Positions 2,505 to 47,773 of a stretch of 47,773 nucleotides of DNA are shown here, one piece after another. The stretch is from a phage. The first letter of the stretch is position 1. The number at the start of each line of letters is the position of its first letter. The stretch is from NCBI GenBank assembly GCA_036604865.1, contig GCA_036604865.1_4856.1, one strand, 5' to 3'. The position numbers were made by a program, and so were the translations under genes. The notes under the pieces were generated by a model. The model saw only the letters and a list, made by a program, of their open reading frames with translations, did not search any database and was not told where the DNA came from.

Positions 2505-2533
2505 TTGACGTAGATTGATGGGGCGTTTATAGT
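2505..2533 (+). promoter_or_regulatory. sigma70-type promoter TTGACG-17-TATAGT with TAGATTG motif abutting the -35 hexamer
   Basis: ttgacg at 2505-2510, 17-nt spacer, tatagt at 2528-2533; lies upstream of the plus-strand cassette 2575-4458. Confidence 0.55.
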
Positions 2534-2574
2534 TAGTGACGTAGAAACAACAATAAATGTTAGAGGTGATGAAA

Positions 2575-2751: not shown

Positions 2752-3561
2752 ATGAAAACACTCAGCAAAATCTATTCAGACAAAGAAACGCGCAACGGCA
2801 TCGCTGTTAACAAAACCTATCTCGTGCCAGTGGAGCAAATATATCTGGAGCCGGGATACAACATCCGTGAAGCAGATGAGCAGCATGTGGAATATTTCGC
2901 GCAGTGCTGGGAATCAGGTCAGCCATTGCCAGCATTAACAGTTATTCCAGATGAGAAGGGAATCCGCATTCTTGATGGGCAGCATCGCTATCTCGGCGCA
3001 CTGCGTGCCATTGAGCGTGGCGCGCCAATCGCTCGCATTGAGTGTAAGGATTTCACTGGAGATGAGGCGGATAAAATTGCCTTCATGGTGTCATCCAGTC
3101 AGGGCAAGCAGCTTGACCCGTTTGAACGTGCAAAGGCTTACACGAGACTGAAAGGCTTTGGCTGGACGAATGAAGAAATCGCCAAGAAGGTGGGTCGTTC
3201 AGTATCTGACGTGCAGATGCATCTGTCACTGGGTGATGTGCCTGCGGAAGTAAAAGCGCGAATCAGTGCCGGGCAAATCAGCTATGCAAATGCCGTAGCA
3301 GTAACGCGTGAACATGGCGATGATGCGGTAAAAGTTATCGACGAGGCAGTCGAAGAGGCCAAAGCACAAGGCAAGGATAAGGTCACTGCAAAAGTGCTCA
3401 AGTCGAAAAAGATTAAGCCAGTAGACCGCCTGATTGAGTTATTGAAGCCAGCCGACCATGTAATTCTCCCCGCTGGTCATGTAGTGGCTGAGGACGAGGA
3501 ATTTATTCAGATTCCTGTTGCTGATATTCACGAGGTTATGGCAATTCTGGAGAAGATGTGA
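2752..3561 (+). CDS. ParB-like nuclease domain protein
   Basis: 269 aa; ILDGQHRYLGALRA matches the ParB N-terminal domain core (DGxHR); SD aagga upstream. Confidence 0.6.
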   Translation: MKTLSKIYSDKETRNGIAVNKTYLVPVEQIYLEPGYNIREADEQHVEYFAQCWESGQPLPALTVIPDEKGIRILDGQHRYLGALRAIERGAPIARIECKDFTGDEADKIAFMVSSSQGKQLDPFERAKAYTRLKGFGWTNEEIAKKVGRSVSDVQMHLSLGDVPAEVKARISAGQISYANAVAVTREHGDDAVKVIDEAVEEAKAQGKDKVTAKVLKSKKIKPVDRLIELLKPADHVILPAGHVVAEDEEFIQIPVADIHEVMAILEKM

Positions 3562-3752: not shown

Positions 3753-3922
3753 CACCAGAACAATTCATCGAAAAACAACTTCGTGCCAAGCTGCCTGAAA
3801 TCGACCAGATGGCAATTGATGCGGCAATTCAGTATTACAAGCGCAATCAGAGCGCAAAGAAGGGTGGCATTTTTGAAGAATGCCTGAAGGTTGCAAAGCA
3901 ACACATGATTAAGGTGAAGTGA
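3749..3922 (+). CDS. hypothetical small protein (57 aa)
   Basis: Not in ORF track; fills the gap between 3752 and 3922 with start/stop overlaps on both sides; MTPEQFIEKQLRAK... Confidence 0.35.
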   Translation: MTPEQFIEKQLRAKLPEIDQMAIDAAIQYYKRNQSAKKGGIFEECLKVAKQHMIKVK

Positions 3923-4458
3923 TGAAACTAAAAATCAGCAAACTATTACTTGAATCAGCGTTAATATTTCAGGCGCGCAACGATATTCGTTACTATCTGA
4001 ACGGTATCTGCTTTATGCCTGATGGTCGCATTGCATCAACTGACGGTCATCGCGCATTTATTGGTTGCAGCCATGACAATACGCTGACAAAAAATGTGAT
4101 TATCAAGATTGGCAAATCTCCAACAAAACGCTATGACTACGCCATCATTGACACCAAGTCGAAAATTGCAACGTATCATGATGAAGCTGGCGTGATGGTT
4201 GGCGATGGTATCAGCGAAGAGATTGATGGCCGATTCCCTGACATTGACCGCGTGATACCAAAAGAAACGAAAGCAGCAGAGGAAATAGGATTCAATGCTA
4301 GCTACCTTGTTGATATTGAGAAAGTGGCGAAGCTGTTTAATCCTAAATTCTGTGGTGTCAAATTTGAACTGAATGGGAATACAAATGCCGCAGTTTGCTG
4401 TCTTAGCTCGCCATCTGGAGAGACTGCGAAGATTGTTGTTATGCCTATGCGTCTGTAG
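3922..4458 (+). CDS. hypothetical protein
   Basis: ORF track 3919-4458; ATG at 3922 overlaps the previous stop (TGATG); no domain recognised. Confidence 0.5.
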   Translation: MKLKISKLLLESALIFQARNDIRYYLNGICFMPDGRIASTDGHRAFIGCSHDNTLTKNVIIKIGKSPTKRYDYAIIDTKSKIATYHDEAGVMVGDGISEEIDGRFPDIDRVIPKETKAAEEIGFNASYLVDIEKVAKLFNPKFCGVKFELNGNTNAAVCCLSSPSGETAKIVVMPMRL

Positions 4459-4464
4459 CAATCA

Positions 4465-4490
4465 AAAGCCCCATCACGGGGCTTTTCTTT
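4465..4490. terminator. bidirectional rho-independent terminator (agcccc-atcac-ggggct plus T-run)
   Basis: Hairpin 4467-4483 flanked by A-run and T-run, between convergent genes ending at 4458 and 4493. Confidence 0.55.
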
Positions 4491-5549: not shown

Positions 5550-5636
5550 TTAAATATCCCCATGAGTTAATGCTGGTTAATTGTAGCACACTAGTTACTA
5601 TCGTGGTAATATAAAACCAAATTAGGAGTGACTTTT

Positions 5637-6443
5637 ATGAAAACAAGAAAAGAAGCCGCGCAAGAAGCAAGGGTTGCTGGACTGAAGCAATTTGTGTGTG
5701 AATGGATTCCATGCTCCGTATGTGGTGGAACTGTGTTTTTTACAGCATCAGGCGGATGCAAGCATTGCGTATACGAAAGAACGAGAGCAAGAAGATCTAC
5801 TGCTGAATACAAAGAAAAGATGAAGCAGAAAAACAAAGAAGAGTGGTTAAAAAATAAAAACAACCCAGAATTCAAGGCTATTAAGAAAGAAAGAGATAGG
5901 GAGTTTCACAAGAAATACAAAAAAAGATTAAGCTCAGACATAAAAAAGATGGAGGAATTTCTCAGAAGAAGAAGGGATGCGTACCGTAAATGGTATTACT
6001 CTGAGAAAGGCAACAAAAAGGCTCTGGATAACGTCAAGCAATGGCAAAAGAAACACCCCCACCACGTGTTCCTAAGGAAGATGCTTGAAAGAATTGATGT
6101 GAGGTTGTCTGACGTTGCCATTGATAAAACCGTTGATGATGTGCTTGGTTATACAAAAAGTGATTTTATAAAACACATAGAGTCAACTATGGAGCCATGG
6201 ATGAGCTTTGATAATCGTAGTTGCTGGCATATAGATCACATACTTCCAGTGGACTGGTTTGTAAAAAACAACCTTGTCTACCCAGAACTGGTGAATTCAC
6301 TACATAACCTCAAAGCTGAGCCAGCAGAGTTCAACTGGAAGAAAAACAGGAAGTGGCTGCGCAAGGATATGACGCAATGGGAATTCTGCTACATGCTGCA
6401 ATATATGGTGTATGGTGAAATCAGGTATAAAGAAGGGGGCTAA
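5637..6443 (+). CDS. HNH homing endonuclease
   Basis: HNH core CWHIDHILPVDWF; N-terminal Cys cluster; ATG at 5637 after SD aggag; lone plus-strand gene inside the head block. Confidence 0.65.
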   Translation: MKTRKEAAQEARVAGLKQFVCEWIPCSVCGGTVFFTASGGCKHCVYERTRARRSTAEYKEKMKQKNKEEWLKNKNNPEFKAIKKERDREFHKKYKKRLSSDIKKMEEFLRRRRDAYRKWYYSEKGNKKALDNVKQWQKKHPHHVFLRKMLERIDVRLSDVAIDKTVDDVLGYTKSDFIKHIESTMEPWMSFDNRSCWHIDHILPVDWFVKNNLVYPELVNSLHNLKAEPAEFNWKKNRKWLRKDMTQWEFCYMLQYMVYGEIRYKEGG

Positions 6444-7539: not shown

Positions 7540-9419
<1,880 letters not shown>

Positions 9420-20329: not shown

Positions 20330-20430
20330 GATTATACTATGCGCTCGGTGTAGATTGGTCAAGTGTGGTGATGCGGATTTATCAACAATAATAAATGTTG
20401 ACGTAGATATGATGGTGATGTAGATTGTAA
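20330..20430. promoter_or_regulatory. cluster of four GTAGAT(T) motif copies including promoter TTGACG-17-TAGATT (20398-20426)
   Basis: gatgtagatta, ggtgtagattgg, gacgtagatat and gatgtagattgt lie within 100 bp; last two form a -35/-10 pair with 17-nt spacer. Confidence 0.5.
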
Positions 20431-21085: not shown

Positions 21086-22507
21086 TTATCTCCTGCGCCG
21101 GATTAGCATCCCGCTACCGCGCTGAACGATGTGGTCATTTAGTGCATAGCGAACCGCATCCCAGAAGTGGTTGAATGCGTCAACAATATCAGTCAGCACA
21201 TTCCCTGTCAGCTTATCAACCTTATAGCTGTACATTGCCGCTTCATTCTGCATTTCCTTGCATCGTTCGTGAATGATGATACTGTCGCATCCACGCAGCC
21301 ATGTCACACCATCCTCAACACTGCCAGGCCATTTTGTGCATGGATGAATATCAAAACCAGAGCGCTTGATGTGGCTGATGGTTTCAGGTCGAGCGCAGTC
21401 GGCATACCATCGTGCGCGCTTAGCCATCGGGAATGATTGCTCCATCGCAGCTGGTGTATCGGTAATCTCAAGCCCCACCTTGCCGTACTCGCGATTAATA
21501 TAAATGTTGCGCCGCCCACCTGGCAATTCTTCGATGTAAACCTCAACCATTGCGGTCGGATCAGTGGAAAACCCGAAGTCCATGCCGAAGTATGGACCAT
21601 GCCATTCAGGTTTGGCCTCAAAGTTATCAATGCGCCATTTGCCGCCGAAGACCTGCTCGTCACTGCGCTTGTTAAATTTTCCTTCCCAAATCCACATGTA
21701 ACGGTCGAAGTCGACGCGCTTCATCTTATCTTTTGAACGGATTAACTCCTCTGTCATCCATGGGTTATCGGTCCAGTTACACTCAATGATGAGTATTTCA
21801 TCATCCTCGTAAATTCCGTTTACCATTTTGTCGTGCCACGGAGCCACCCAGCGCGTCCATGTGGCGTCGGTTTCTTTGTTGGGGTTGAATGTCACCCATA
21901 TTTCAGCGCCGGGGTTGCGAACGGTAGGCTCAAGGATATCCCATGATGCCTGACTGACGTTTTCAGCCTCCTCAATCCATGCCTTCGTGATGCCAGCAAA
22001 ACCCTTAACACCTGTCACGTTGCGATAAAGACCACGGAAGCGGAACTTTGATTTCGTCTTTTTGTGGGTAATCTTGCCATCAATGCAACGATACTCTTTT
22101 GATTCTCCCTTGCGATCAATCTCGTCCACCAGCTCCTGATAGCTGGAATCTTCAATTGATTGCTGAATCTCGCGGAAGCACCCGATACGCTCGGATTTAA
22201 ATCTTGCCGACTCAGTGAGGATTGTCGACACTGTGCGAGTCTTTGCCGACCCGCGTCCACCATAAACAACCTTCCACGGCTTCGGATAAAGCAGTCGCTC
22301 AAGTTTTGCGGGAATCAGGTGGTCGGCATGAGTAGTTACATTGGTCACATCATCAACGCCAGTGGCAGTCATCCTTAACCGTTTAATGACGTTCTTTTGC
22401 ATGTCACAGATACCAAAGATGGCAGACCCTGCAACATCTGTCATTGCATCATCAATCTGCGCTTCCAGCTTTTCAATTGCCAATGCAGAGAGGCGTTTAC
22501 GAGCCAT
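21086..22507 (-). CDS. terminase large subunit
   Basis: Walker A VYGGRGSAKT near N-terminus; C-terminal nuclease-type motif GMDFGFSTDPTA; 473 aa. Confidence 0.85.
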   Translation of the reverse strand: MARKRLSALAIEKLEAQIDDAMTDVAGSAIFGICDMQKNVIKRLRMTATGVDDVTNVTTHADHLIPAKLERLLYPKPWKVVYGGRGSAKTRTVSTILTESARFKSERIGCFREIQQSIEDSSYQELVDEIDRKGESKEYRCIDGKITHKKTKSKFRFRGLYRNVTGVKGFAGITKAWIEEAENVSQASWDILEPTVRNPGAEIWVTFNPNKETDATWTRWVAPWHDKMVNGIYEDDEILIIECNWTDNPWMTEELIRSKDKMKRVDFDRYMWIWEGKFNKRSDEQVFGGKWRIDNFEAKPEWHGPYFGMDFGFSTDPTAMVEVYIEELPGGRRNIYINREYGKVGLEITDTPAAMEQSFPMAKRARWYADCARPETISHIKRSGFDIHPCTKWPGSVEDGVTWLRGCDSIIIHERCKEMQNEAAMYSYKVDKLTGNVLTDIVDAFNHFWDAVRYALNDHIVQRGSGMLIRRRR

Positions 22508-26077: not shown

Positions 26078-26366
26078 CTCGTGGGGTAAATTTTTGCCCG
26101 TGGGGCAGGTCGTGGGGCAGGTCGGTTGCCCCACGTTTTTCATCGTAAATCATTGATTTGAATGTTTTTATTTTTCGTGGGTAAAAAGGGGCAGATTTCA
26201 TACCCATCCCCTTATAAGTATATTCAAATAATCCATTTGTTAATATTATGTTAATTACTATCTATAATATGAATAATAATATTACCCATTAACCCAAATA
26301 ATAATAATTTTATTATATTACATATACTTAGATGAATGTTTCGTGGGGCAGGTTGGTTGCCCCACG
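26078..26366. repeat. iteron-like direct repeats CGTGGGG(C/T)A with inverted CCCCACG copies flanking a ~150-bp AT-rich stretch
   Basis: cgtggggcaggt is tandemly duplicated at 26099-26122 and recurs at 26342-26353, each followed by ttgccccacg; related copies at 26080 and 26176; centre is about 80 percent A+T. Confidence 0.5.
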
Positions 26367-26462
26367 TTAACCCAATTTACCCCTTTTGACGCTTTTTGTT
26401 GTGTTGCAATGCTGGGGAGTAAGTGGTAGTATTTTGGGGAAATAGTTGATTGGGGAGCGGAA

Positions 26463-26735
26463 ATGAGCAATCACGGTGTATTATTAAAGCGCAAATTAAA
26501 CAAACATGGTCGTGGTGCTGGGTGGGTTGCATCATCAAAATCAACCACTGGATACTACGGTGTTGATTACCACAAGGCATCAAAAAAATTCAGAGCGAGA
26601 GTGATGGTACTCAAGAAAAGATATGAGCTTGGTATGTTTGAAACGGCAGAGGAAGCAAACGCTGCTGTTTTGAGAGCCAAGGAATGGTTATCAGAGAATC
26701 CTCATGAGAAATTTGAAACAGAGTACGAGGTCTAA
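26463..26735 (+). CDS. AP2-domain DNA-binding protein
   Basis: GYYGVDYHKASKKFRARV...GMFETAEEANAAVLRAKEWL fits the AP2 fold pattern; first gene of the plus replication module. Confidence 0.55.
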   Translation: MSNHGVLLKRKLNKHGRGAGWVASSKSTTGYYGVDYHKASKKFRARVMVLKKRYELGMFETAEEANAAVLRAKEWLSENPHEKFETEYEV

Positions 26736-28289
26736 ATGATTACAGCTCAAGACATCTTCAACGAAGCAAGGGAATTAAAAGTATCTCCTGCTCGCGTTGC
26801 CTTCCATCATGGCATGACACCAAGCTCAAACATGTGGCTTGACATCAAGGAAGGTAAGGAGCGTGATGTAACGTACTCAGAAACAGAACTGACCAGTGAG
26901 CACCGGACTGATTTACTGTCTCGTTATGCAATCTCAGCTGCTCGCGCCGTTCAGTTCCCAATAAATACATCGTTCATGCATTTACTTGGGTGCGTTGCCA
27001 GCGCAATGACGAGAAACTTTAGCGTTGAGTATTACCATTCAGAGCTTCCAGTTTCTCTTTACGTGGTTACTTCTCAGCCTCCATCAGCTGGGAAAACCGC
27101 CATTAACTCAATGCACATGAATCCGGTGAAGATTGAATATGACAACCTTTCCAAAAAGATGGAAAAGCAGATCATAAAAATAAATCTTCGCATTGAAGAA
27201 CTGATGAAGGCATACAAAGAGGCCAGTAATCAGAATGCAAAGGCACTAATCGGCGACGATATTGCTCGGGAAAAGGAGAAGCTGGAAGAGCTTTATACGA
27301 TTACATATCCACTGACGGACGCAACTCCAGAGGCTGTTCAGCATCAGGCCATTCATGAAGGTGGTTTTTTTAATCTGATAAGTGACGAGGCAAGCGTTCT
27401 TAACACCTGCCTTGGCCTCTCTTACGGAAAAGAAGGTGGAAAGGCAAACGCCGAAGTCATCCTGAAGGGCTGGGATGGCGGATTCATTGGTTCTGCTCGT
27501 GTTGGTCGTGGCGTTTCATCTGGTTACGTGCTTGGAAACATAAGTGTGATTGCGCAGGATGAAAGTATTGATGCCATTCTTGCCGCTGGCGACAGGGGGA
27601 ACGGTCTTTCTGAACGTTTCCTGATGTTGCGAGAGCAATCGATGCTTGGCTATCGCGAACACTGGGACATGGTTAATGACTGCCCTGTAAGCAAGCCAAT
27701 GCCAGACAGCTTGAGGTCGGAATATGCAAGATTTATACATAATGTTGTGTCAGCAGAAAAAACAAAACTGACGCTTCACAATGACTCAGCAAGAATGATC
27801 GGCCTGTTACGAAATCAGTGGGAGAAAAACTTCCTTCCCGGCGGTAAGTGGGACCACGTTCTTCTTCGTGGTGCAATGGGTAAAGCTGATAAGCAAATAA
27901 TCCGCCTGGCAGCAATATTTCACGCTGCTGAAAACTGGTGCGATGGAGGAAGACGGTCAAAAATTATCGGTGAAAATGAAATTAGTCGCGCTATCAGTGT
28001 TTATGACGCACTGACAAAAACATTCACCGACGCCGTGGAATCAAATGGATATGCTGGCGAGCGTTCTGAATTTGATGTTGTTGCCGAAAAGCTACGCTCT
28101 GCCGCTCAGAAAGGAAAAACAAACGTAACGGTGAAGTGGCTTTATGATTCACTTAAAAACGTTCGACCATTCAAAGGGATACCTAAAATTTATGACCGAC
28201 TCAGATCAAGTGTATTGCCATCACTTGAAGAGGATGGTTACTGCGTTTTTATTGGTAATACTGTCCACATTAATCCGAGGTTGAAATGA
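26736..28289 (+). CDS. replication-module protein, possibly DUF3987-like helicase/primase-associated
   Basis: 517 aa; P-loop-like SQPPSAGKT; sits beside primase and helicase genes; family assignment from memory, unverified. Confidence 0.5.
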   Translation: MITAQDIFNEARELKVSPARVAFHHGMTPSSNMWLDIKEGKERDVTYSETELTSEHRTDLLSRYAISAARAVQFPINTSFMHLLGCVASAMTRNFSVEYYHSELPVSLYVVTSQPPSAGKTAINSMHMNPVKIEYDNLSKKMEKQIIKINLRIEELMKAYKEASNQNAKALIGDDIAREKEKLEELYTITYPLTDATPEAVQHQAIHEGGFFNLISDEASVLNTCLGLSYGKEGGKANAEVILKGWDGGFIGSARVGRGVSSGYVLGNISVIAQDESIDAILAAGDRGNGLSERFLMLREQSMLGYREHWDMVNDCPVSKPMPDSLRSEYARFIHNVVSAEKTKLTLHNDSARMIGLLRNQWEKNFLPGGKWDHVLLRGAMGKADKQIIRLAAIFHAAENWCDGGRRSKIIGENEISRAISVYDALTKTFTDAVESNGYAGERSEFDVVAEKLRSAAQKGKTNVTVKWLYDSLKNVRPFKGIPKIYDRLRSSVLPSLEEDGYCVFIGNTVHINPRLK

Positions 28290-29538: not shown

Positions 29539-29613
29539 AAATTGACCCTTGATTGTTGGTGTAGATTGAGTATAAGCTAACTGACGTAGAAACATCAACA
29601 AAGGTTAGTTGCT

Positions 29614-31539
29614 ATGACGCATAAAATAGACAAGATGATTTCAGAGATTGACATTAACTTACTGAAATCCTGCTTGGATACTGGTGATATCGAGCCAAGA
29701 CCCTATCAGTGGTTGATATATAAGTTAACTGGTGATGTGATTCGTCATTATGTTGGCCCGAGCTATGTAACGGCAAGTGTAGGTAGTGGAAAGTCACTGA
29801 TGATTGCCATGATAGCAAAGCGTTTTCAGGAAATGGGATATTCAGGGATGATTTTATCAAGACAGGGAGAAATAGTGGAGCAGGATGCGGAAGAGCTATG
29901 GTCGCTTGGTGTTAGAAACTCGCTATTCAGTGCTTCGTTGGGTAGGAAAAGTTCTACTTATCCAATAATCTGTGGTTCTGAGGGTACTGTTATAAATGCT
30001 TTGTTTGATAAAAAGGATGAGTCAGGGAATGTTATTGCAAAAGGTGCGCTCTCTGACTTTTGCCCAAGATTCCTGCTTATCGATGAAAATCATATGGTTA
30101 ATGACATTGATGTTGTTAATAATGGTGATACGCAGTATGCAGTGATAATTAATGAGCTAATGAAAAGGTGCAAAGATAAGCACGGCCATGAGTTGAGAAT
30201 AATAGGTTATACAGGCTCACCGTTTCGCGGAACTACATCAATAAAAGGCGCTTTCTGGAAGAAGGAGATTATCAACATAGACACCAAATACATGGTTGAA
30301 AACGGTTTTCTTGTGCCAACAATTTTTGGTCTTCATGATGTTGATAGTCTGCATTATGACCTTTCAGATTTTCATGGTTCAGATGTTGATGGCACTCAGG
30401 ACTTTACCTCCGAGCAGCTCAAGCAGATGCAAAAAGAAATTCTTGAGCAAGGTACGTTGACGCAGAAAATCATGCTCAAGGTTATGGAGTTGACTAAAAA
30501 CAGAAACGGCGTACTGATTACATGTGCTGGTAAAAAACATTGTCAGGAGGCGGCAAAATACCTACCAGAAGGGAGTTATTCAATAGTTACAGAAGATATG
30601 GGGTCAAAAGCCAGAAGGAAGGCTCTAAAAGATGCATACACCGGGCGCAAAAAATTCACATTCCAGATAGCCGCCCTTACCACTGGCGTAAATATACCGT
30701 TATGGGATACGAGCTGCATATTACGAAAAATAATGTCGCTCACCCTTCTTGTTCAGTTGCTTGGTCGCGGAATGCGCCTGCTGAAGAAAGAGCAAATTGA
30801 TGCCGGGTATCATAAAGAAGACCATTTGGTTCTTGATTTCTCTGGCACGATGTTTGAGCTTGGTCAGTTATATGAAGACCCAATTCTGGAAGAAGCTGAA
30901 GCGCAGCGTTCAAAACGCATTGGTGAACAGGTTCCGTGTCCGAAATGTGGAACAATGAACAGCCCATATGCGCGCCGCTGCATTGGCAAAGATGCATTGT
31001 CGACAGATGGTAGATGCGAAGAGTTTTTCAGTTACATTCGCTGTGGATTTGACAAGCACGGAATCCGTATTTTTGATGATGGCTGCGGCACTAAAAACGA
31101 CCCTACAGCTCGCTATTGCAGACATTGCGATCACGTTTTGCGTGACCCGAATGCGGCACTGAATGAGCGTGCGTATACAGATAATGAGTGGGCTGATGTT
31201 ATGGATTTCAAAGTCCAGTTAACGAAGGATGGAGATGGGATTTTGTATCGCTACTGGATTAATCGTTGTGATGGCAAAGAGGGATGGGCTAATGAGGTTT
31301 TCTATCCATACGGCGGCGCAACTCACATGAAAAACATGTTCAAGGCGAAGGCCATCTTCCCTCACCTTGATGATAAATCAATGGCTGGGAGAATCCTGAA
31401 ATGCCAGAACGCAAAACAATTCATGATGTATGCGGGGTTAATTAAAGCGCCAAAACGCATCACGCATCGGATTAATGATAAAGGTCGCGACATTATCCAC
31501 AGAAAAGAATTTAAAGGAGAACAAAGTGAAGCAGCTTGA
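29614..31539 (+). CDS. superfamily 2 DNA helicase (DExH-type)
   Basis: Walker A ASVGSGKS, motif II LLIDENH, C-terminal Cys-rich zinc-finger-like region; 641 aa. Confidence 0.75.
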   Translation: MTHKIDKMISEIDINLLKSCLDTGDIEPRPYQWLIYKLTGDVIRHYVGPSYVTASVGSGKSLMIAMIAKRFQEMGYSGMILSRQGEIVEQDAEELWSLGVRNSLFSASLGRKSSTYPIICGSEGTVINALFDKKDESGNVIAKGALSDFCPRFLLIDENHMVNDIDVVNNGDTQYAVIINELMKRCKDKHGHELRIIGYTGSPFRGTTSIKGAFWKKEIINIDTKYMVENGFLVPTIFGLHDVDSLHYDLSDFHGSDVDGTQDFTSEQLKQMQKEILEQGTLTQKIMLKVMELTKNRNGVLITCAGKKHCQEAAKYLPEGSYSIVTEDMGSKARRKALKDAYTGRKKFTFQIAALTTGVNIPLWDTSCILRKIMSLTLLVQLLGRGMRLLKKEQIDAGYHKEDHLVLDFSGTMFELGQLYEDPILEEAEAQRSKRIGEQVPCPKCGTMNSPYARRCIGKDALSTDGRCEEFFSYIRCGFDKHGIRIFDDGCGTKNDPTARYCRHCDHVLRDPNAALNERAYTDNEWADVMDFKVQLTKDGDGILYRYWINRCDGKEGWANEVFYPYGGATHMKNMFKAKAIFPHLDDKSMAGRILKCQNAKQFMMYAGLIKAPKRITHRINDKGRDIIHRKEFKGEQSEAA

Positions 31540-47641: not shown

Positions 47642-47718
47642 GGACGCGTAGCTTAATTGGTTAAAGCAACCGACTCATAATCGGCTGATTGAAGGTTCAA
47701 ATCCGTCCGTGTCCACCA
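47642..47718 (+). tRNA. tRNA with anticodon CAU (Met, or Ile if lysidine-modified), CCA encoded
   Basis: Cloverleaf: 7-bp acceptor stem with one G-U, D arm gctt/aagc, anticodon loop cuCAUaa, T loop ttcaaat, one A-G mismatch in T stem, discriminator A plus CCA. Confidence 0.75.
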
Positions 47719-47773
47719 AATTAAAAGCCGCTTTATGCGGCTTTATTTATTTCACGACCCGCAAAAGCAACTC
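47647..47773. repeat. 127-bp direct repeat of window positions 1-127 (genome closure overlap or terminal redundancy)
   Basis: Exact identity read from the sequence: cgtagcttaattggttaaagc...cgcaaaagcaactc at both ends. Confidence 0.9.
47724..47753. terminator. rho-independent terminator after the tRNA (same element as 78-107)
   Basis: Identical sequence to 78-107 within the terminal repeat. Confidence 0.5.

Follow-up and report, generated by a model that had tools for sequence, protein, structure and literature searches.

A ParB-like protein without a ParA partner in a lytic siphophage lineage: a predicted nucleotide-gated DNA clamp or regulator

What does a ParB-family protein do in a phage that carries no ParA? 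The question is raised by a 269-amino-acid protein encoded at 2752..3561 on the plus strand of a phage DNA stretch of 47,773 nucleotides (NCBI GenBank assembly GCA_036604865.1, contig GCA_036604865.1_4856.1); the whole of this stretch is referred to as the window. A first-pass annotation, made from the letters of the DNA, had described the product as a stand-alone ParB-like nuclease domain protein of an accessory cassette that may act outside partitioning. The reading frame with its ILDGQHRYLGALRA segment (residues 73-86) was borne out by the open reading frame (ORF) listing, by its match to PHROG 1033 and by homologues, and its stand-alone membership of the ParB family by domain, profile and fold matches. 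A role outside classical partitioning is supported by the analysis, whereas the nuclease label is not.

The reading favoured here, with a probability of about one half, is that the protein is a DNA-binding dimer, gated by nucleotide and independent of ParA, that resembles KorB, Noc or HerB, i.e., a clamp or regulator that serves neither partition nor cleavage. In the proposed mechanism, a helix-turn-helix (HTH) domain would bind DNA, a C-terminal module would hold two subunits together and the N-domain would bind a nucleoside triphosphate (NTP) via a GxxR pocket (N37, R39, G76 and R79). Binding of the NTP would bring the two N-domains together, upon which the dimer would clamp, slide on or bridge DNA. 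The phage would gain from this a helpful but non-essential modulation of DNA transactions, either transcription or the organisation of its own or the host's DNA. To judge from the motif pattern, the nucleotide is more likely to be ATP than CTP, because the box II equivalent reads G-x-H-R without the acidic residues of canonical CTPases, and nucleotide turnover is likely to be slow or absent.

Domain architecture and nucleotide-pocket motifs

Two sets of homologues were used for the family comparisons, namely 120 close homologues and 122 distant representatives at 22-44% identity. The latter were drawn from the 787 cluster representatives that an exhaustive profile search of 1.84 billion proteins returned when only the N-domain served as query. 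Pfam reports only HTH_ParB and KorB for the ParB-like protein. The HTH_ParB family PF17762 scores 44.1 bits (cut-off 22.6) and the KorB family PF08535 gives E = 7.2e-6. HTH_ParB is present in 115 of the 122 distant representatives, and the domain structurally matches the DNA-binding domains of KorB and ParB.

The claim of a ParB N-terminal core holds for fold and profile alignment, but the domain is too divergent for PF02195 (ParB_N), which was unreported even at E <= 10 for the isolated N-domain and for three diverse family members. The sole Pfam trace in this domain comes from DndB, which covers the DGQHR stretch with E = 0.076, and PF02195 sees 6 of the 122 distant representatives. A family profile aligns residues 27-183 to solved ParBs (Spo0J 1vz0, E = 1.9e-16; Myxococcus xanthus 7bnk; Bacillus subtilis 6sdk) as well as to Noc and KorB. 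The AlphaFold2 model, which is a confident one (predicted local distance difference test score, pLDDT, 86.9), matches ParB, Noc and KorB at about 1e-8 in Foldseek and superposes best on 6t1f and 8qa9, both of them open forms bound to DNA. By profile alignment and structure match, the N-domain adopts a ParB/Srx fold.

Motif states were read from the alignments to 6sdk, 7bnk and 1vz0, and the ToxB preprint supplies the equivalence to G101-E102-R103-R104 of Caulobacter crescentus ParB. The box I motif QPR probably corresponds to N37-I38-R39, with an alignment ambiguity of one residue. In box II, GERRxRA is replaced by G76-Q77-H78-R79-Y-L-G; the minimal GxxR is intact, whereas the full GERRxRA is absent. 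R79 is the universal nucleotide-binding arginine, equivalent to R80 of B. subtilis ParB, R104 of C. crescentus ParB, R94 of HerB and R108 of ToxB. The first-pass annotation had named absence of this arginine on alignment as a ground for rejection; it is present and essentially invariant (120/122). The canonical arginine patch as a whole is not kept, since H78 and L81 stand in for two of the arginines in GERRxRA, which has three, and the acidic residues of boxes II and III are lost. The Glu of GERR, the site of the E93A change in the M. xanthus structure 7o0n, is Q77 in this protein, and Q or H takes its place in the family. In box III, E111 of B. subtilis aligns with S114 (Thr in most members) and N112 with S115, so that no ENLQR motif is present. 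By sequence, B. subtilis E111 corresponds to C. crescentus E135, which has been compared with the Mg-coordinating E130 of HerB (bioRxiv 10.64898/2026.07.07.736705).

These states are properties of the family. The pattern [DE]G[QH]HR occurs in 118 of the 120 close homologues (DGQHR in 75 and DGHHR in 42), and three box III variants together also account for 118 (SSQG 95, TSEG 16 and SNNS 7). Among the 122 distant representatives, the most conserved N-domain residues are N37 (121), R39 (119), G76 (121) and R79 (120), whereas Glu occupies the GERR position in only nine. The retention of the pocket residues and the rarity of the Glu point to selection that kept the phosphate-binding pocket and discarded the canonical hydrolysis residues.

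Several ParB/Srx folds of other architectures have the same box II pattern, including ToxB, DndB (DGQHR), GmrS/DUF262 (DGQQR) and sulfiredoxin (Srx, GCHR). G105-N106-H107-R108 of ToxB corresponds to G76-Q77-H78-R79 of the phage protein; the acidic Glu of GERR is missing and box III is lost or divergent. ToxB binds and hydrolyses ATP only (ToxB preprint). A DndB-like protein binds ATP and GTP, sulfiredoxin uses ATP, and DGQHR and GCHR are signatures of the DndB and Srx families, respectively. The phage protein carries the DGQHR pentapeptide at residues 75-79, but these comparators lack HTH_ParB and are enzymes or regulators of other kinds. Family-level matches are correspondingly faint: the DGQHR family leaves a trace at E = 5.5e-3 (TIGR03187, 16.5 against a cut-off of 58.85), PF14072 (DndB) scores 12.5 against 29.1, and GmrSD_N matches only four of the 122 relatives.

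The helical C-terminal region of the first-pass annotation is correct only in part, since residues 120-202 form HTH_ParB and residues 223-268 an α-β-β-α module. This module, which is presumed to mediate dimerisation or protein interaction, gave no significant structural match when it was submitted alone to the fold search. Two conserved elements lie outside the recognised domains. The N-terminal peptide has an invariant Y8 and an invariant or nearly invariant K21 in the homologue alignment. In the lysine-rich linker, K210 and T212 of the GKxKVT motif are invariant in the same alignment, and of the 122 distant representatives 88 have K210 and 93 have T212. Both elements may serve as interaction or DNA-contact elements.

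The label "nuclease domain" reflects the historical Pfam name of the ParB N-domain, and a 2012 prediction took the DGHHR of ParB-fold toxins for a nuclease site that binds metal. A DNA nuclease that cleaves, for example, host DNA or competing elements is nevertheless the least probable of the roles considered. PF02195, the family behind the name, does not match, the protein shows no nuclease motif, and neither an HNH nor any other nuclease domain was found in it or in the 122 relatives. The ParB-fold toxins of contact-dependent inhibition systems that have been studied experimentally, including the DGHHR type, have since been reported as ATPases, and the conserved residues of the phage family map to the phosphate-binding pocket.

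Distribution, missing ParA partner and a natural deletion

The two ends of the window are identical (1-127 = 47647-47773, 100% over 127 nt), which indicates that it holds a whole circularised genome of about 47.6 kb (about 47,646 bp); the identity reflects either circular permutation or an assembly overlap. The absence of a ParA partner could therefore be examined genome-wide, and it was confirmed. No deviant Walker A motif (KGGxGK[ST]) occurs in the six frames of the complete genome, and its P-loop ORFs comprise only a helicase, an AAA_24 protein and a third ORF that matches DUF2514 and nothing else. A Pfam scan of 26 ORFs brought up no ParA, integrase, repressor or methyltransferase. Eight further carriers and one deletion variant were inspected around the gene, and the stretches covered contain no annotated or called ParA. 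The ParA-interaction peptide LG[KR]GL is absent from the query, from the N-termini of the 120 close homologues and from the first 40 residues of the 122 distant representatives.

The parS-like repeat search suggested by the first-pass annotation was run and returned nothing. Canonical parS with up to three mismatches, the Noc binding site (NBS), the KorB operator (OB) and sopC of F gave nothing better than chance in the genome. De novo searches for recurrent near-palindromes of 14-18 bp found no cluster above shuffled genomes, although a single-copy site of new sequence would escape them. Individual perfect palindromes were rejected as candidate sites, as none tracks the carriers against the deletion variant and those that are conserved fall within structural genes that are themselves conserved.

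A role in partitioning a carrier state that resembles a plasmid (pseudolysogeny), with a host ATPase in place of ParA, has a precedent in a proposal for Serratia phage Eta. Many records annotate the protein as "ParB-like partition protein", and it has the three-part layout of ParB. Such a role is very unlikely here, because the genome lacks ParA, the ParA-interaction peptide and a parS-like repeat, and because homologues occur in prophages that integrate with their own integrase and have no ParA nearby. The lineage itself is described as strictly lytic, without lysogeny genes. The profile TIGR00180 (parB_part) scores 36.9 bits against a cut-off of 58.45, and nucleoid_noc 37.2 against 315. Compared with the chromosomal ParB/Spo0J proteins (Thermus thermophilus 1vz0, B. 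subtilis 6sdk, M. xanthus 7bnk and C. crescentus 6t1f/7bm8), the phage protein lacks ParA, LG[KR]GL and parS. Its changes from GERRxRA to GQHRyLG and from ENLQR to SSSQG remove the hydrolysis and Mg residues, and its C-terminal module is not recognisably a ParB dimerisation domain.

The window is the genome of a lytic siphophage, about 93% identical to Escherichia phage C1 (Deseoctovirus) and to many lytic Salmonella, Shigella and Klebsiella siphophages, among them Vi II-E1 and phages assigned to Skatevirus; a literature search on Vi II-E1 together with ParB found nothing. The ParB-like gene is present in 316 phage records by tblastn. At an identity of at least 80% it is carried by 192 records, compared with 203 records that have the lineage capsid protein (at least 60%), and it is near-core in its lineage. 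The description "accessory" therefore fails as regards sporadic occurrence, but it agrees with the variable slot downstream of the gene and with the dispensability described below. In a collection of 5.8 billion proteins, homologues were found at 37-99% identity. Homologues at about 30-45% identity were also found by tblastn in 1,014 plasmid records, mostly conjugative; one on the IncT plasmid Rts1 (5815-6882) shows 32% identity over 93% of the length. The plasmid homologues are annotated as hypothetical, and no ParA was annotated beside them in the examples viewed.

The genes for the ParB-like protein and for a sliding-clamp-like protein are the fixed anchors of the cassette among the relatives, and the genes before and between them vary, including the slot directly downstream of the ParB-like gene. 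The variable genes include a split DNA methyltransferase (C1), phrog_6115 (Klebsiella phage ZCKP8) and an anti-restriction gene (KFSST1). The presence of anti-restriction or methylase genes in the cassettes of relatives is in keeping with an early unit. Another possibility is that the protein is a targeting or activating subunit that brings a DNA-modifying enzyme such as a methyltransferase to DNA, as ParB-methyltransferase fusions may do. C1 and several relatives have a DNA methyltransferase gene immediately downstream, and gp23 of C1 matches phrog_67 (DNA methyltransferase family) from profile position 121. Fusions of the ParB fold with methyltransferases are common in phages, and phage ParBs activate T-dioxygenases. 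However, the cassette in the window has no methyltransferase and none was found in the Pfam scans of the 26 ORFs, so that this role is inapplicable to the present genome. ParBs associated with 5mYOX have no HTH, and no neighbour is common to all carriers. Such a subunit role is improbable, if slightly less so than partition.

Among the immediate neighbours in nine contexts, no universal partner gene was found. The sole neighbour link across lineages is phrog_6115, of which the window has no copy. The gene lies directly downstream of the ParB-like gene in ZCKP8 (21652-21999, minus strand) and in a Chimaeribacter lambdoid prophage (9015-9374); the two copies are 75% identical and show a weak zinc-ribbon match. 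This sharing suggests that the two genes form a small mobile unit or else that the slot has undergone exchange repeatedly.

A natural deletion was identified in Klebsiella phage VLCpiS13a. The deletion removes the upstream gene together with the N-domain and HTH of the ParB-like gene, leaving only a 60-aa ORF (7618-7800, minus strand) that corresponds to the C-terminal module and sits directly behind the cassette ribosome-binding site. As VLCpiS13a is a viable isolate, the ParB-like gene is dispensable. An intact copy is present in the similarly named relative VLCpiS13b, and the two phages form a natural sibling pair for phenotype comparison.

The combination found here, a ParB-fold N-domain and an HTH in one protein without ParA on a mobile element, is that of the orphan KorB, HerB, BisD and VirB type. 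KorB of RK2 and Noc are close structural neighbours by Foldseek and profile. However, both keep canonical CTP motifs and recognise palindromic sites (OB and NBS, respectively), neither of which is present in the window, and KorB works with KorA and IncC, for which no counterpart was found by the phage gene. The closest functional analogue is HerB (YfjB), an orphan, ParA-independent protein borne on a mobile element, the leading region of the F plasmid. HerB is made immediately on F entry and forms foci on the nucleoid that need its HTH and box II Arg; its chromosomal binding sites are many and show no parS consensus, and it reprograms host transcription and aids establishment of the element (bioRxiv 10.64898/2026.07.07.736705). 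HerB is much larger, has its own D4 dimerisation dome and binds CTPγS; its box II Arg is canonical, and the Glu of box III is retained. The likeness lies in the shared ParB core, and beyond that core the analogy is a functional one. The 5mYOX-associated phage ParBs are likewise orphans with a divergent N-domain, and they possess a C-terminal dimerisation domain. Unlike the protein described here, they lack an HTH, and they activate an adjacent dioxygenase, an enzyme not present in the window.

DNA sites, transcription and replication

A promoter family of the TGTTGACGTAGATTG type gives 11 matches in the window against 1.66 expected, at operon boundaries. Positions of this type are 2503, 11845(-), 14622, 20396, 20413, 26027(-), 26044(-), 29554 and 45263. 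The -35 (TTGACGTAGAT) and -10 (GATGTAGATTG) regions are alike, which yields tandem copies spaced by 17 bp at 20396/20413 and 26027/26044. The same family is found in ZCKP8 and VLCpiS13a. The word TGACGTAGA has eight copies in the window and seven in ZCKP8, compared with 0.36 expected, and marks the -35 elements of divergent operons. At the ParB cassette, two copies stand in direct orientation, one at the -35 element and one at the start of the leader; they are 31 bp apart, with the -10 element between them. The leader contains a conserved box, TGACGTAGAAACAACAATAAATGTTA. A second copy of the leader box lies at 29582-29617, upstream of the helicase gene, and the pattern TGACGTAGAAACA[AT]CAACAAA..GTTAG follows two promoters, that of the ParB cassette and the upstream promoter of the helicase. 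The leader box could be an operator or an RNA element.

These words invite the idea of a KorB-like repressor that acts on the early promoters of the phage, including its own, through TGACGTAGA. Their excess at operon boundaries, the bracketing of the -10 element and the perfect conservation of the 26-nt leader in ZCKP8 would fit such a role, and KorB, a structural neighbour, binds operators at promoters. On the other hand, the words are direct repeats, whereas a ParB-type HTH dimer is expected to bind palindromes, and they overlap the -35 and -10 hexamers, which makes them explicable as promoter consensus. Distant carriers of the family lack them, and VLCpiS13a, without the N-domain and HTH, keeps six such promoters and a near-intact leader. 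On both of the latter grounds TGACGTAGA was rejected as a parS site or operator of the ParB-like protein. It is best read, from the distribution of the words, as a lineage promoter consensus, possibly bound by another regulator; the lineage does encode other putative regulators, e.g., MarR-type proteins. A repressor role is thus doubtful, although it is the strongest of the alternatives to the favoured clamp or regulator.

An origin-like region at 26080-26400 contains CGTGGGGCAGGT iterons and two 23-bp palindromic units (GTGGGGCA-N7-TGCCCCAC, at 26112 and 26343) that flank an AT-rich stretch. The region lies upstream of an AP2-domain gene (26463-26735) and a DUF3987 primase/helicase gene (26736-28289), and ZCKP8 likewise has three copies of GTGGGGCA next to its DUF3987 gene. 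The iterons and palindromes were rejected as a site of the ParB-like protein, being lineage-specific and next to initiator genes.

Distant members of the family (40-50% identity) lie in the early operons (pR and pL) of integrating lambdoid prophages, and several of the homologue contexts encode integrases. In Morganella prophages the homologue is located between cII and the genes for an O-like initiator and P, whereas in a Chimaeribacter prophage it follows N directly in the pL operon. The pL region also holds it, behind a DUF2303 gene, in Serratia phage OS31 and in a Klebsiella plasmid-borne prophage. In myophages of the ECOO78 type it adjoins a module encoding a single-stranded DNA-binding protein (SSB), AAA_24, PD-(D/E)XK and helicase proteins.

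Such contexts could point to a replication-associated organiser that works at the phage origin, close to it or alongside the replisome, e.g., by loading or organising replicating DNA jointly with the co-transcribed clamp-like protein. The Morganella gene is directly upstream of an O-like initiator or DnaD-like loader and lambda P, and the module of the ECOO78-type phages is likewise adjoined in a 10.9 kb phage-like Klebsiella pneumoniae plasmid record. In the window, co-transcription with the sliding-clamp-like gene is predicted, and the origin-like region carries its two palindromic units. This role is unlikely, however, as other prophages hold the gene in the pL operon far from replication genes, many carriers have no clamp-like gene, the simpler explanation of the GTGGGGCA iterons is that they serve the AP2 or DUF3987 initiator proteins encoded next to them, and the ParB-like gene is dispensable for plaque formation.

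Several points weigh against the nucleotide-gated dimer as well. The function of this ParB-like family is a prediction from sequence and models. According to the PNAS 2025 survey of ParB-fold proteins, nucleotide specificity is not reliably readable from sequence, and 17 of 28 purified proteins bound no NTP in vitro. As the Mg-coordinating Glu of box III is missing, the N-domain could be non-hydrolysing or free of ligand. ParT of SCP2, a ParB-like HTH protein without an apparent CTPase domain, loads and diffuses on DNA without CTP; it uses ParA and an 18-bp parS, whereas the phage protein keeps the pocket and has neither partner. The C-terminal module matches no known dimerisation domain, and the site and palindrome searches identified no DNA target. 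The early timing is read from a promoter consensus match only, and such matches are not enriched in the region. Finally, the viable natural deletion implies that any role of the protein is auxiliary.

A broader proposal, which is speculative, is that the protein is the founding example of a discrete clade of three-domain HTH-ParB proteins, with about 790 cluster representatives and unseen by PF02195. By virtue of the G-x-H-R pocket its members would be DNA clamps gated by ATP instead of CTP, made from the early operons of lytic and temperate enterobacterial phages; these would reprogram or organise host or phage DNA as a phage counterpart of HerB. Surveys seeded on PF02195 will have missed the clade. 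The PNAS 2025 survey, whose seeds were PF02195 and TIGR00180, probably under-samples it for this reason; no close relative is mentioned as tested in its supplements. For work on ParB proteins the clade offers a tractable test case, since it combines the full DNA-binding layout with a box II of the kind seen in ParB folds that bind ATP.

The gene itself is not new, many GenBank records already labelling it "ParB-like partition protein". What is added here is that the partition label is misleading, together with the definition of the variant motifs of the clade, its distribution in early operons of lytic and temperate phages, and the natural deletion variant. Nearly two hundred lytic Salmonella, Escherichia, Klebsiella and Shigella phages carry the gene, and several of them have been proposed for biocontrol. 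The label wrongly hints at a plasmid-prophage lifestyle, which matters for safety annotation. The lack of ParA, parS and a ParA-binding peptide, and the existence of one lineage member without the gene, are evidence against a partition system.

The five-gene cassette and other features of the window

The cassette comprises five tightly packed genes in the order 63 aa, ParB-like, 64 aa, 57 aa and the 179-aa sliding-clamp-like protein. It is antisense, between blocks of structural genes, with a promoter and a terminator at its two ends. The upstream stop lies 3 nt before the ATG of the ParB-like gene, the TGA of which overlaps the next start, and the gene is therefore taken to be translationally coupled to both neighbours. 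The promoter is kept in ZCKP8 despite unalignable flanks, and the cassette, including the ParB-like protein, is probably made early in infection from this host-type promoter. A bacterial clamp is about twice as long as the 179-aa protein, which gives weaker matches to phrog_947 (processivity factor) and to Pfam DNA_pol3_beta domains, and its gene is found in 238 phage records. None of the five cassette proteins matched a PADLOC defence model.

Table 1. Coordinates of the ParB-like gene, its protein segments and the surrounding cassette features in the window
Feature	Position	Strand	Details
Cassette sigma-70-type promoter, TTGACG-17-TATAGT	2505..2533	+	10/12 consensus matches; TTGACGTAGATT promoter family
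Conserved leader or operator-like box	2537..2562	+	26 consecutive invariant bases in the window, C1 and ZCKP8
First cassette gene, 63 aa	2557..2748	+	phrog_37822, E = 2.2e-16
ParB-like protein gene	2752..3561	+	ATG start, 269 aa; PHROG 1033, E = 9e-91
Conserved flexible N-terminal peptide M.TL.Q.Y..K.T..GI.V.K, residues 1-21	2752..2814	+	pLDDT about 70
ParB/Srx-fold N-domain, predicted nucleotide-binding, residues 22-120	2815..3111	+	
Box I equivalent GYNIR, residues 35-39	2854..2868	+	Aligns to QPR
Box II equivalent DGQHR (GxxR, pattern G-x-H-R), residues 75-79	2974..2988	+	Aligns to GERR of solved ParBs
Box III equivalent SSSQGK, residues 114-119	3091..3108	+	In place of ENLQRE; alignment to 6sdk
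HTH_ParB DNA-binding domain, residues 120-202	3109..3357	+	PF17762, E = 2.5e-11
Lys-rich linker with GKxKVT motif, residues 207-222	3370..3417	+	GKDKVT at 3370-3387; pLDDT dip
Family-specific C-terminal α-β-β-α module, residues 223-269	3418..3558	+	
Cassette gene in variable slot, 64 aa	3558..3752	+	phrog_7185, E = 1.6e-21
Cassette gene, 57 aa	3749..3922	+	phrog_4439, E = 5.3e-23; 75% identity to ZCKP8 homologue
Short sliding-clamp-like protein, 179 aa, last cassette gene	3919..4458	+	phrog_3007, 3.6e-62
Hairpin terminator closing the cassette	4464..4486	+	9-bp stem, then T-run; terminator family D2

A tRNA-Met gene (47642-47718) straddles the genome junction. An endonuclease VII or HNH-like gene (phrog_1035) lies at 5628-6443 on the opposite strand between capsid-region genes. 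Its G+C content is 0.39 compared with 0.46 for the genome, phage C1 has no counterpart at this position, and the segment looks like a homing-endonuclease insertion.

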